Source: a virus
Lineage: Duplodnaviria > Heunggongvirae > Uroviricota > Caudoviricetes
IMG/VR virus record: IMGVR_UViG_2534681673_000009
DNA: 49,610 bases
Reading direction: 5' to 3' (one strand)
Shown here in pieces: positions 9,001-12,000 of the stretch (within the stretch, counting starts at the first letter, position 1; each line of letters begins with the position of its first letter). The position numbers were made by a program.

Positions 9001-12000
9001 TAACCACATCAGGCTCGGTGGTTCTCGTGTACCCCTACAGCGAGAAATCGGATAAACTCTATTCACCCCTACAGAGAGCAAAAGAGAAACGCCGATGAAC
9101 AACTCATGGTGGCAGGAACTAATGCATTTTTTCCTGCAAGGAATGACACTTAAACAGTTGATTCATATGCTAATCATCCTGATCATATTGATTATTGTTA
9201 TGCCGGTAAGCGTAAAAGAATGGATAAACCTGCATAATCCAGAAATCCTTCCTCATTACTGGATGTATTACATCCTGTTGTTTTGCGTTAGCTATGTGCT
9301 TAACGGCGTTGTTAATTCCGCTTATCACGCTGTGACTGAAAGAATTGAGGTATTCGCTGCTCAGAAGCGCAAATCTAAAGAAGAAAAATATGTGCAAGAT
9401 TTGTTTGATTCGTTAACTCTTGGAGAAAGAGCGTATTTGGCATTCGCTGTAGCCGCTAATAACCAGCTACAAACGGAAAAGGGAGCTCATGAATCAATTT
9501 CATTGCTCAAAAAAGGACTCCTCGTTCGAAGGCCTCCTGCTGTTGGATATCCTGATACCGACCGTTTTGTTATTCCTGAAAGCTATAGACATGAGTGCTA
9601 CATTCGGTTTGCCGGGAAGGCAGACAGCCTTATGGATGAACTTATCGCTCAGGATAAGCATGGCAAAAACAAGTAATTAGCAAATGAATTTATCATCTCG
9701 CCGTCAGTTGTTTTGATTTCCGGTAGCCTGCCGCGTAAATAGCTACGTTTGGCAGGCAAACACTTCCACTGCATTCATCTACTTTCTTGCAGCGAAGGCT
9801 TCCGAGTGATATTGCTTTTTCAGAAAGGCTTAACCGCTTTCTCGGGTCTTCCTGAACAGGTTCCTCACTGTCTGTGCCGAAGATCGAATCGATGATGTTG
9901 CAGATGGAATCACGCTCGATGGCCAGCTTTCTGCGCCGCTCATGACGGCGAGTTTTGGCATTTCCTGCAAATGTTGATTTTCCGTACACGATTACCGTCA
10001 TGATGTTTTCCTCATGTGAAATGGCTTTGGTGGTGATGCGCCAGATGCTGATCTTCTGGTTGCTGTCGTTACTGCTGCAATTCACATCACCCCAAACCCA
10101 TCTCGTTTGGTATCTGTTCGCGCTTTGTCAGCGCATCATCGAAGTTAAAGAGCCTGCCAATCTGTTCCGTTTGGCTGCCAGCGTCCTGCTGATGGTGATG
10201 ATAATGAACCAATAGTTCGATATTATCAAGAACTATAAGTACGAATTGTTTGTGGTTCATTAACTTAATGAGATATGTTTTTGATATGTAAAGGAATTTA
10301 TTTTTGTAAAGATTGAAGATTGGTCAGTAGGAGAGAAAGAATTGTTTGCTGGCGTGTTAGTTCGTGGGTTAGCACATGTGCGGATGTTAAATAAGGTAGA
10401 CGATCGTGAGGAAAAGAAAAACCGGCGCTGAGGCCGGGTATAATTATTTGATTATTTCTTTTATAAAGACTTCTTTCGGTTGGTATTTTTTATCTGATGA
10501 TTTGAGCTGGTACGTTATTGTTATATCAGCACGTACAGCAAATTTACCTGCAAAATCTGATGGGTTTACGTTGGGGCCAAGAACCATATTTACTCTTCGA
10601 TCTATTAATCCAGGGATAACAGCAGCCCAACCTTTCTCTGGATTGTCGAGGTCTAATGCACGGATTTCAACATCAACATCAAAATGATCCTGAGTATATG
10701 ACTCTGGTGTGAAGACAACTTCAGTTGGGGCTTTTTTAATGGTTTCAGCGGGAATGGTCACTGTACCACCCCCTGTACCTATGACCATCGTAGATCCTTC
10801 GTCTGCCCTAGCTGGGGCAAGCGTCTTAATGGAACTTTTGGCAAGAGTCTTCTTATTGGTTACCGTGCTTTCTATGATTGCTTGAAGACGGTCAGGTGAA
10901 ATATTAGCCTCACCGGCACCAATATTGATGATTGTATTGTTATTTGCTTCAAAGTGGGAGGTGTTGCTTGGAGCCATAGCCTTAGTTGCTAGAACTAAGC
11001 CATATCCAACCAGACCAATAACAACAGCACCAACGAGAGCGTTTCTCATTTTCCCATTTCCGATCTTTGCATGAGCGCCAGCAAGAAACTTGTCCATTTC
11101 TTCTTGGCTACCAAAGAGGAGTTTAATAACAATATCTTCATAAAGGCTTCCTGCTTCTAATCGCGCAACATGCACCGATATATCAAGGATATTAGCCCCT
11201 GTCAGTTCCTGCAAAACACCTTCTGATTGTTTTGCGATGGCCTCCCACCCTTGAAGGGAGGTAATCACATCTTTGATGCTTACAGGTTCTTTAGTTGAAT
11301 AATATATGTTTTCGGTAAAGGTTAAAGATAATTCTTGGGACATCCGAGCCCTCGCTGTTTCTTTCGATTTGCTGTGTTAAGCTAATATTTTAATATCCAT
11401 GTTTCTGTTTGCTTGCAGTGTGTTTCTCACCACCATCCAAACGTACTGGTTACTAGCTATGTGATGATGAAGTCATGAACTTTTCAGCCATTCCCTGGCC
11501 TCGATGTCATCTAGGTGGCGAGATTGCTTCAGAATACCAGCTACATACTCCACCTTTGCTACTTGATGATAAGGCAACGTTATTGGCCTGTGGTCTTGGT
11601 TGATGCTTGTAAATTGGTATTCTCCGTCTCTGTCATAGCCAAGAACCTTGATCATGTTGTGCCCTTCAATGGTTCTGACAAACACCTCATCACCTGGGAA
11701 TACTTTGGTGTTAGGCTCAATGAGTACATATTCTCCTGATTTTATTCTGGGCCACATGCTGTCTCCTTTTACACGAAGACCAAAGGCATCTGGATCATCG
11801 CTATAAATCTTGAGCCACCCATCGCGCTCTTCGGTCATCTCGATGGCACCATCAACACCAAGAATTGCCTCACCAACCACGCGCACTAACCCTTTTTTTA
11901 ATTTGCCAACAATTGAAAAAGTATCTTCATCATTCGCTCCATTTAACGAAGTGCCGTGCTGAAGCCAAACAACATCAACGTTTAGAAATTTCGCAAGCGC

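Follow-up and report, generated by a model that had tools for sequence, protein, structure and literature searches.

Genes carried behind the repressor of a temperate phage have two well-known examples, rexAB in lambda and stk in 933W. RexA, a sensor, and RexB, a multi-pass channel with four transmembrane helices, form an abortive-infection pair, and Stk excludes phage HK97 from lysogens. Other cargo positions, such as the Q-S region, hold toxins and fitness factors too, as at the stx and bor sites. Proteins that block phage entry are usually small, fast-evolving and specific for a host channel. SieA of P22, a protein of 162–164 amino acids with three predicted transmembrane helices (PMC10883804), and gp15 of HK97, which is annotated as a moron product and has a putative terminator directly after its gene, are single inner-membrane products of lysogen-expressed prophage cargo, and both block DNA injection. 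SNIPE (PD-lambda-1) is a membrane-anchored protein whose cytoplasmic DNA-binding domains act on injected DNA (PMC13190303).

In this study, we analyse an open reading frame (ORF) in a window of 49,610 nucleotides, the whole of a tailed-phage sequence (IMG/VR record IMGVR_UViG_2534681673_000009), that a first-pass annotation had singled out as an unrecognised membrane protein in the position of rex. We find that cargo is exchanged between fixed flanks in the slot behind the prophage repressor and that the ORF is a genuine gene under strong purifying selection. By analogy with the other occupants of such slots it is a good candidate for a single-gene phage-exclusion protein, a defence function being deduced only from position. 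The features of the locus are collected in Table 1.

Table 1. Features of the repressor-proximal region, in coordinates of the window.
Feature	Coordinates	Strand	Description
Variable cargo slot of this immunity type	10440..11444	.	~1 kb; flanks common to prophages with other cargo
Cargo ORF	10444..11343	-	299 aa; WP_000076839.1, UniProt A0A0K3ZDM7, PHROG 4506
cI repressor	11473..12180	-	235 aa, HTH_3 + Peptidase_S24; 933W-type immunity; WP_000250470.1 (S24 family peptidase)
cI-ORF intergenic leader	11344..11472	-	Without terminator and without consensus promoter
Hydrophobic Gly-rich helix	10975..11043	-	Codons 101-123, ALVGAVVIGLVGYGLVLATKAMA; first arm of predicted membrane hairpin
Top-conserved family motif	10909..10953	-	Codons 131-145, F/I-E-A-N-N-N-T-I-I-N-I-G-A-G-E; predicted helical; second, polar hairpin arm
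Conserved IRALDLDNPEKGW loop of predicted C-terminal OB-like beta-barrel	10627..10665	-	Codons 227-239
Intrinsic terminator closing the cI-cargo unit	10412..10437	-	CCGGC-CUCAGC-GCCGG + UUUUUCUUUU
pL-like promoter and operator-like half-site	10201..10245	-	TTGATA-17-CATTAT at 10229..10201; half-site 10232-10245
nutL	10120..10153	-	boxA GCTCTTTAAC, boxB GCGCTGACAAAGCGC
N antiterminator	9693..10004	-	103 aa from MTVIVYG...
SieB-like gene of the window	9095..9676		

The placement described in the first-pass annotation can be read directly from the sequence: the ORF lies downstream of cI on the same strand, its stop codon precedes the terminator by 6 bp, and the pL and nutL elements separate it from N. 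It begins with an ATG, 5 nt after a ribosome binding site (GAGGG, 11349-11353), and is separated from cI, presumed to be the upstream gene of a shared operon, by a gap of 129 bp. The leader in this gap has an RNA-folding z of +0.32 and no terminator-like hairpin, and no consensus promoter was found in it. The terminator folds with an energy of -9.1 kcal/mol (z -3.3), its hairpin of two complementary five-base arms around a six-base loop running with the U-tract from 10437 to 10422. Further along, the operator-like half-site adjoins the pL-like promoter and is related to the oR palindrome at 12229-12243, and the search for nutL boxA/boxB gave one match where none is expected by chance; an Rfam search of positions 9500-12800 gave no match. 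The ORF was also said to be visibly richer in AT than the flanking cI and N, and at 41.3% GC it does lie modestly below cI (45.3%) and N (48.7%), but the neighbouring sieB (40.7%) and cro (42.1%) are equally AT-rich. As the entire immunity region is AT-rich, we dropped composition as a strong case for horizontal acquisition.

Evidence for exchange comes from comparison of related prophages. Homology to two related loci, L066 and L067, ends at position 11445 and restarts at 10439/10438, so that the shared flanks of the slot are the sequence from 11445 upward and the terminator region 10402-10439, and the ORF exactly occupies the space that runs from the 3' end of cI to the shared terminator; L067 carries different cargo in front of the same terminator. 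In prophages with an identical cro and a cI of 97% identity, the latter found in prophages of O157:H7, the slot holds either an Stk-type kinase together with a DUF3024 protein or a serine proteinase. The allelic kinase matches the PD-T4-6 and mad6 models (E 1e-37 to 7e-50) and the allelic DUF3024 protein matches the PADLOC candidate PDC-S43 (E 6.5e-41). The positional argument for a rex slot, made at first from gene order, is therefore strengthened by a slot with fixed flanks and alternative cargo.

The ORF is also found with repressors other than this one. A block extending from 11379/11405 to 10410 is found again, 81-95% identical, behind four repressors whose identity to this cI is only 21-29%, so that a cassette of leader, ORF and terminator stands behind at least four unrelated repressors. 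The part of the leader that moves with the ORF is its last 36-62 bp (up to 11379-11405), and the terminator moves as well, giving the cassette the terminator of its own that is expected of a moron. Repressors of the S24/HTH type make up 18 of the 43 distinct upstream neighbours of family genes; other relatives lie between Q and the holin on the opposite strand, within a Mu-like head module, and downstream of the primase in a satellite-like element, and one adjoins a HEPN/PD-Lambda-3_B-like gene. No conserved partner gene was found across these loci, the ORFs downstream of the homologs being unrelated or spurious, and a 299-aa neighbour in locus L068 proved not to be a paralogue. What emerges is an apparently promoter-less cassette able to hop among the repressor operons of unrelated phages. 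Considering the lack of a terminator and of a consensus promoter in the 129-bp gap together with the shared slot and cassette, the ORF is likely to be co-transcribed with cI, as far as the DNA alone can indicate. A TAAAAT element resembling a -10 box is found ~50 nt before the ATG and could provide a weak internal promoter; the promoter-like site that precedes the homolog at the Q-S site is not above chance.

The ORF belongs to a large family. Its product matches PHROG 4506 (function unknown) over its full length (E 1.9e-170, residues 1-299 against positions 1-300 of a 300-position profile), and the family comprises 662 cluster representatives (50% identity; E<=1e-3), nearly all ~300 aa long and collinear, with one architecture kept across Enterobacterales, Pseudomonas phages and Accumulibacter. 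Comparison with the alleles of 81-95% nucleotide identity gives every segment of the ORF a dN/dS of 0.02-0.09, a uniformly purifying pattern from which the signature of an arms race is absent. It is carried by 150 of 5,426 complete E. coli genomes (~3%), and since the reference strain E2348/69 has a nonsense allele the gene must be dispensable.

The claim that the family is unrecognised was borne out. The query has no match in Pfam, NCBIfam or PADLOC (in the last none even at E<=1), a sequence-profile search of the PDB gave nothing below E 0.4, and Foldseek against viral models (BFVD) returned uncharacterised proteins only, one of them with a DUF6575 domain. A literature search by accession, PHROG identifier and PDC-S42 found no mention of the protein, and WP_000076839 is absent from those entries of the DefensePredictor supplement that were available. 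Among 135 relatives, Pfam and PADLOC matches were at chance level with one exception, the profile PDC-S42, which is matched by two of the 135 and not by the query itself. For one of the two (P0183) the match has E 5.9e-6 and 24 bits and is collinear over ~200 residues (31-247 against 23-227 of a profile of length 302); the query in turn weakly matches phrog_3243 (E 0.0039, 19-239 against 24-222 of 293 positions, also collinear). PDC-S42 and PHROG 3243 are uncharacterised families of ~300 aa that resemble this one in length and in these collinear weak matches, and are possibly its remote sister family. PDC-S42 is a computational candidate only, and the match of P0183 to it would tie the family to defence no more than weakly.

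The protein itself has a single strongly hydrophobic segment (residues 102-122, Kyte-Doolittle maximum 2.24), which is kept in 171 of 194 family members and is followed by a polar helix, the conserved IEANNNTIINIGAGE. Direct coupling analysis (DCA) gives the pair 13-186 a z of 9.8, rank 3 of 43,071 and ranks of 1-6 in five subsamples. With 11-190 and 17-184 it makes a ladder, of which 13-186 and 11-190 are stable on subsampling, and the exchange at 11-190 of His-Asp for Glu-Ser/Thr is chemically sensible; by this covariation the N-terminal strand pairs with strand 184-190. An AlphaFold model from a deep alignment (pLDDT 93.2, pTM 0.86) likewise brings the two regions together and sets helices 100-123 and 125-145 back to back. 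Covariation and model thus agree that the N- and C-terminal parts touch, and because the parts before and after the hydrophobic helix are in contact the membrane should not separate them. Given this same-side contact, the hydrophobic helix and the polar IEANNNTIINIGAGE helix are most likely the two arms of a membrane hairpin, and the soluble body is probably cytoplasmic. The distribution of Lys and Arg is in keeping with such a hairpin, K/R being enriched on the outer flanks (3.6 and 3.2) relative to the turn (0.8). The polar arm by itself would be a poor transmembrane helix (mean Kyte-Doolittle 0.11, ~1.5 acidic residues), and covariation between the arms is weak and unstable, the pair 112-135 ranking anywhere from 38 to 1537. 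That the second helix is an amphipathic surface helix was considered and dropped, its hydrophobic moment being only 0.15-0.19. The first-pass annotation had described one transmembrane helix between an N-domain and a C-domain; the single hydrophobic segment stands, whereas the single pass and the separate domains, which would place the parts before and after the helix on opposite sides and out of contact, are contradicted by the paired positions and the structure model. In the C-terminal loop at residues 227-239, W239 is invariant and A229, D231, D233 and G238 are nearly so, R228 being invariant only among the closer relatives in alignment A1; this loop is a candidate site for a ligand or partner.

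Taken together, these observations suggest an explanation that we put forward tentatively, as one that may well turn out otherwise: that the ORF is promoter-less cargo made in the lysogen and acts as a single-gene anti-phage determinant, with a sensor body and a hairpin effector. If it lies in a unit of cI, cargo and terminator and lacks its own promoter, its expression in the lysogen would parallel that of rexAB in lambda. The protein is predicted to have a cytoplasmic alpha/beta domain formed from residues 1-95 and ~150-205, with the hairpin, a hydrophobic Gly-rich arm (100-123) and a polar Asn/Glu-rich arm (125-145), inserted within it, and then an OB-like beta-barrel (215-297) bearing the R-x-x-D-x-D...GW loop. 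More speculatively, the cytoplasmic body might sense the infecting phage or a ligand; an oligomer might then form with the hydrophobic arms toward the lipid and the polar arms lining a pore, and the membrane would be depolarised and the infection aborted, one polypeptide doing the job of RexA and RexB in the same slot. The fully specified version of this scheme, in which an unnamed family widespread among temperate phages is the one-polypeptide counterpart of RexAB, the R-D-D-W loop body detects a phage product or small ligand, conserved Asn/Glu rings from the IEANNNTIINIGAGE helix line an oligomeric pore, the infected lysogen is depolarised and killed, and recombination spreads the cassette to repressor operons of unrelated phages, is doubtful as a whole.

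We favour such a sensor-coupled membrane effector, acting by abortive infection, over a block to entry. In the latter, a protein anchored at the cytoplasmic face of the membrane would bind the incoming DNA end, the tape-measure or pilot proteins, or a host channel, and plug injection without killing, following the logic of SieA, of gp15, or of SNIPE minus its nuclease. In favour of this reading are the use of the slot for exclusion genes and the presence there of one gene, presumably expressed in the lysogen, for a protein with a predicted membrane anchor, and SNIPE is a precedent for an anchored protein that acts on injected DNA (PMC13190303). We nevertheless consider it rather unlikely: the family resembles neither gp15 nor SieB in sequence or profile and has neither DUF4041 nor GIY-YIG, it keeps one architecture across a wide host range with dN/dS ~0.03, unlike typical entry blockers, and its most conserved element is the polar helix beside the membrane helix, which a role as mere anchor would leave unexplained.

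Lysogenic conversion or housekeeping unrelated to defence would be served by a membrane channel or regulator that alters the host envelope, stress tolerance, colonisation, or prophage maintenance and induction. Strong, uniform purifying selection with broad conservation would suit such a gene, its frequent site behind very different repressors might point to a role in lysogeny itself, non-defence genes are likewise known from cargo sites such as Q-S, and the query matches no known defence model. The occurrence of the gene away from repressors, in the Mu-like head module, the satellite-like element and on the opposite strand at the Q-S site, argues against a repressor-specific role, while the allelic cargo of the slot consists of defence or defence-candidate genes and one member is weakly tied to PDC-S42; on balance this reading seems unlikely. 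Least probable, and in our view very unlikely, is a true single-pass N-in/C-out protein with a C-domain of ~175 aa acting in the periplasm, for example on tail tips, ejection proteins or receptors, for which speak the single strong hydrophobic segment, a positive-inside bias at its immediate flanks (K/R 3.15 vs 1.12, N>C in 167 of 194 members), a following segment whose polarity is too high for a usual second transmembrane helix, and the low confidence after the hydrophobic helix of a model from a shallow alignment, but against which stand the contact that robust covariation of 11 and 13 with 190 and 186 requires, the deep-alignment model, and the return of K/R enrichment past the second helix (3.18 in residues 147-166).

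Should the protein protect lysogens, it would represent a new single-gene defence family of unusual build, with a membrane hairpin inserted in a cytoplasmic domain, and would offer a small system in which the coupling of sensing to a membrane effector could be studied. Should it not, this would still be among the commoner genes without explanation that coliphages presumably express from the lysogenic operon. In either case a family of several hundred sequence clusters stands without a name, a domain model or a structure.

Compared with the systems described above, the proposed protein is like SNIPE in being a single protein with one anchor that holds cytoplasmic working domains at the membrane, but in SNIPE the anchor is N-terminal and is joined by DUF4041 and a GIY-YIG nuclease, while here the anchor is internal and neither domain has a Pfam or PADLOC match in the query or in 135 relatives. 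Like P22 SieA and HK97 gp15 it would be single, lysogen-expressed, inner-membrane prophage cargo. Those proteins lack large soluble domains, gp15 has 62 aa against 299, and SieA, by its description (~160 aa, three transmembrane helices), is set apart from a protein with one hydrophobic peak; hhalign gives the family a probability of 0.1% with gp15 and 0.1% with the SieB of the window. SNIPE, HepS, Tab and SieA were all rejected as relatives on account of their different domains. The membrane effectors of CBASS and Pycsar (2TM, Cap15, PycTM) gave chance-level matches to single members (2TM E 0.0098, PycTM E 0.0026), and no cyclase neighbours were found. The Stk kinase cassette of 933W-type prophages (PD-T4-6) is allelic to the ORF, flanked by a cI of 97% identity on one side and by the same pL region on the other; Stk is a cytoplasmic protein of Ser/Thr kinase fold encoded alongside DUF3024 and a 152-aa ORF, whereas Pkinase, which the allelic O157 cargo does match, has no match in the query or 135 relatives. 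To RexA and RexB the family shows no similarity in sequence or profile (hhalign with the 135-member alignment, probability 0.2%; BLASTP, nothing below E 0.4), and lambda Rex consists of two genes, one encoding a multi-pass protein, where this locus has a single gene for one hydrophobic and one polar helix. The locus is like lambda in the order and orientation of its elements (cI, cargo, terminator, oL/pL, nutL, N), the ORF sharing the strand of cI, standing between it and pL and ending at a terminator, presumably expressed, likewise, from the repressor promoter in the lysogen and with a membrane component, and the proposed passage from sensing to depolarisation would be common to both. The site that holds rexAB in lambda and stk in 933W holds the ORF as exchangeable cargo in this phage. 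The family is new, and the kind of system is known.

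The 299-aa ORF is a real gene in a real family. Among its alleles in other phages at 81–95% nucleotide identity, dN/dS is 0.02–0.09 over the full length and in each segment. The identical protein, WP_000076839.1 (UniProt A0A0K3ZDM7), is present on at least 1000 contigs, always annotated as hypothetical. Complete E. coli genomes carry the gene in 150 of 5,426 cases, and 11 lambdoid coliphages with sequenced genomes have it too, phage 1H12 (genus Jouyvirus) among them. A word-indexed search returned 55 clusters from Enterobacterales to Accumulibacter and an exhaustive profile search 662 representatives at 50% identity (282 with E ≤ 1e-30); family representatives are almost all ~300 aa and collinear, with distant relatives in Pseudomonas phages at 24% identity. 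In the profile searches proposed in the first-pass annotation, PHROGs was the only library that recognised the family, as phrog_4506 of unknown function (E 1.9e-170): the query had no match in Pfam, NCBIfam, PADLOC or a PDB sequence-profile search, Pfam had none to 135 relatives, and a literature search by the protein's accessions found no mention. The protein thus belongs to PHROG 4506 and to no other described group. In the homolog of E. coli E2348/69, the reference EPEC strain, a G to T change makes codon 19 (Glu) a stop (E19stop), and the RefSeq CDS there is therefore shorter; this copy is probably a pseudogene.

Coordinates of the ORF, its surroundings and loci in other genomes
Feature	Locus	Position	Strand	Remarks
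299-aa ORF	window	10444..11343	-	299 codons, ATG start (ORF listing)
cI-type repressor, 235 aa	window	11473..12180	-	HTH_3 and Peptidase_S24; 5' of ORF
Terminator hairpin CCGGC-CUCAGC-GCCGG + UUUUUCUUUU	window	10437..10412	-	begins 6 bp after TAA stop of ORF
Variable slot	window	10440-11444
pL-like promoter	window	10229..10201	-	beyond terminator
Operator-like half-site ACTATAAGTACGAA	window	10232-10245		adjoins pL-like promoter
nutL	window	10120-10153	-	boxA GCTCTTTAAC, boxB GCGCTGACAAAGCGC; 1 match vs 0 expected by chance
57-aa ORF	window	10087-10260	-	overlaps nutL and pL
86-aa ORF	window	9955-10215	+	overlaps nutL and pL
N gene	window	9693..10004	-	beyond nutL
SieB-like superinfection-exclusion gene, 193 aa	window	9095-9676	+	just past N
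Palindrome CGTACTGAAAGTACG	window	12229-12243		between cI and cro
O gene	window	12925-13863		tandem peptide repeat IPQNEGSSPKMRD / IPQNEGKSPKTRD at ~13270-13350
Homolog of the ORF	L061, E2348/69, NC_011601.1	729618-730517		E19stop
333-aa serine proteinase	L067, 30EVA2 prophage	2833-3834		in the slot
Q-holin homologs	L029, L038	~5001-5900		viral contigs
Q-holin homolog	L026	2447-3385		viral contig
126-aa lipoprotein gene	L031, L033, L034, L035	5999-6379		90 bp 3' of homolog, same strand
Three large genes	L008, Serratia fonticola	8194-12909		847, 598 and >824 aa; 3' of homolog
PLD-family gene, then divergent member	L068	123-653, 704-1642		short metagenomic contig

The layout described earlier from the sequence (cI, ORF, terminator, pL/nutL, N) is correct to the base. 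The ORF has a GAGGG ribosome-binding site 5 nt upstream of its start, and 129 bp separate it from cI. Divergent from cI lie cro, cII, O and P, and the terminator folds at -9.1 kcal/mol (z = -3.3). The ORF had also been called AT-rich relative to its flanks. Its GC content (41.3%) is indeed lower than that of cI (45.3%) and N (48.7%), but sieB (40.7%) and cro (42.1%) match it, so that the entire immunity region lies below the window mean of 51%.

Several other features of the region may be recorded. The SieB-like gene lies on the strand opposite to N, as sieB does in lambda, and the prophage therefore already has one annotated exclusion gene beside the slot. The palindrome between cI and cro, flagged as terminator-like by the scan, looks like an oR operator, to which the half-site near pL is kin. 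The two small ORFs over nutL and pL, where records of related phages and genomes annotate a hypothetical protein, are almost certainly spurious. Plus-strand GC skew is strong (0.32–0.37) at 10150-10600, covering the terminator-to-pL spacer and the ORF 3' end, and flat elsewhere. Lambdoid O genes contain the origin iterons, which probably account for the repeat in the O protein.

Homology of the window to prophages of E. coli O157:H7 and 30EVA2 ends at 11445, 28 bp past the cI stop, and restarts at 10439, limits that therefore define a variable slot which the ORF and its leader fill exactly; the terminator sequence is common to the window and 30EVA2. Several hundred other E. coli genomes carry a 97% identical cI allele and an identical Cro protein without the ORF. 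The O157:H7 prophage, of 933W type, holds in the slot a DUF3024 gene and a Ser/Thr kinase gene along with a 152-aa ORF. PADLOC matches this cargo with PDC-S43 at E 6.5e-41 and with two kinase models, PD-T4-6 and mad6, at E 1e-37 to 7e-50. The 30EVA2 slot encodes a Clp-fold serine proteinase of the SDH family, to which PADLOC has no match, a second uncharacterised cargo allele of the same cI slot.

The ORF also travels independently of this repressor. Loci L019–L022 carry alleles at 81–95% nucleotide identity behind repressors only 21–29% identical to this cI. The DNA block that they share is confined to window 11379/11405..10410, from 36–62 bp 5' of the ATG through the terminator, so what travels is the ORF with a short leader and its terminator. 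The cI-ORF gap shows no terminator-like hairpin (RNA fold z = +0.32) and no consensus sigma-70 promoter, and we infer that the ORF would be transcribed by read-through from the repressor promoters, in the style of lambda cI-rexA-rexB. A TAAAAT element in the leader might act as a weak promoter.

In 18 of 43 distinct contexts of relatives, the nearest 5' gene of 100 aa or more encodes an S24/HTH repressor, and in several more an HTH-only repressor (Phage_CI_repr 8, YdaS-type 5); the repressor-then-homolog order recurs in Pectobacterium prophages and one Pseudomonas phage. The contexts without a repressor are all classic accessory-gene positions. On three viral contigs, homologs at 55–59% identity lie between the antiterminator Q and holin genes on the opposite strand, where Shiga-toxin phages carry stx; the promoter-like site seen 5' of the L029 homolog does not exceed chance. 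Other relatives lie between a 282-aa gene and a Mu-type protease in an Accumulibacter Mu-like phage, 3' of a primase in a Serratia satellite-like element, beside an integrase, Dam methylase or SRAP peptidase, and, in one case, directly 3' of a Hypoth_Ymh/HEPN protein matching PD-Lambda-3_B. No conserved 3' partner was found across the homolog loci, and the ORF is a stand-alone gene. Within one lineage the homolog is followed by a lipoprotein gene (signal peptide ending in LTGC), which suggests stacked cargo behind the repressor. The three large genes of the S. fonticola satellite-like element, the first two without a PADLOC match, could be a novel multi-gene system.

The protein has a single strongly hydrophobic segment (residues 102–122, Kyte-Doolittle maximum 2.24), kept in 171 of 194 full-length relatives, whose immediate flanks obey the positive-inside rule (K/R 3.15 vs 1.12); alone, these features suggest an N-in/C-out single-pass protein. 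AlphaFold2 with a 135-sequence alignment (pLDDT 93.2, pTM 0.86) instead places helix 100–123 directly before helix 125–145, followed by strands 186–190 and 193–197, and such a pTM would not be expected of two domains parted by a flexible membrane anchor. In a mean-field direct-coupling analysis of 199 relatives (effective number 163), pairs 13-186 (rank 3 of 43,071, z 9.8), 11-190 (rank 11) and 17-184 (rank 19) join the first strand to strand 184–190 in an antiparallel ladder. Across five 70% subsamples, 13-186 ranked 1–6 and 11-190 ranked 13–45. At 11-190, His-Asp alternates with Glu-Ser/Thr. The remaining top couplings agree with the predicted hairpins and barrel, which makes the map informative. 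K/R is 3.58 before the first helix, 0.79 in the turn and 3.18 in residues 147–166 after the second helix. Model, ladder and charge pattern together mean that the parts flanking the hydrophobic helix touch and must therefore share a membrane side, and the fold is most simply read as a helical hairpin set into a cytoplasmic alpha/beta domain (1–95 and ~150–205), followed by a beta-barrel (215–297). The second arm holds the best-conserved family motif (I/F-E-A-N-N-N-T-I-I-N-I-G-A-G-E) and, at a mean hydropathy of 0.11, has more polar character than an ordinary transmembrane helix would allow; nor is it amphipathic (moment 0.15–0.19). Coupling between the two arms is weak and varies among subsamples, pair 112-135 ranking 38–1537. 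The conserved barrel loop IRALDLDNPEKGW contains W239, which both alignments show as invariant, R228, invariant among closer relatives only, and the near-invariant D231, D233 and G238.

The case for an anti-phage function is positional, and the protein is a reasonable defence candidate. Alleles of the slot include a Stk-type kinase cassette, and in 933W lysogens Stk is responsible for the exclusion of phage HK97. The gene is found again in the lysogenic operons of many unrelated phages and at other accessory-gene sites, and its product is a single membrane-associated protein. One divergent member gives a weak collinear match to the PADLOC defence candidate PDC-S42 (E 5.9e-6, profile of 302 positions), and the query has a weak collinear match to phrog_3243. 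Directly before the divergent member lies the gene of a small Nuc-like protein of the PLD family, whose hydrophobic N-terminal stretch resembles a signal peptide.

As to mechanism, we tentatively favour abortive infection, in which a cytoplasmic sensor would couple to a generic membrane effector and an oligomeric pore would abort infection, because the architecture is uniform across distant hosts and the top-conserved element is a polar helix on a Gly-rich hydrophobic helix. Both features speak more for such an effector than for a protein that blocks the injection channel of a single host, and an entry block at the cytoplasmic face is accordingly unlikely. A non-defence conversion or maintenance role also seems rather unlikely. 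Against the defence reading stand the lack of any defence-model match to the query, the strong, uniform purifying selection and the E19stop allele. Least probable is the bitopic protein with separate N- and C-domains of the first-pass annotation: the one hydrophobic segment and its positive-inside flanks speak for it, and the 13-186 and 11-190 couplings, the pTM and the renewed rise in K/R after the second helix against it.

The original observation is confirmed except in two respects, the single-pass topology and how strongly AT-richness argues, and its interpretation is partly supported: the ORF is an uncharacterised lysogen-linked cargo gene. Nearest by position and logic is lambda rexAB. 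The earlier failure to match RexA/RexB, SieB, a kinase or a known family holds, the query being unrelated by sequence to RexA, RexB, SieB and HK97 gp15 (hhalign probability ≤0.2%) and lacking the kinase domain of Stk and the DUF4041 and GIY-YIG domains of SNIPE; SieA, described as 160 aa with three transmembrane helices, differs as well. Genes for exclusion or abortive infection are well known behind the repressor; what is new is the protein family, together with its probable build, a hairpin within a domain.
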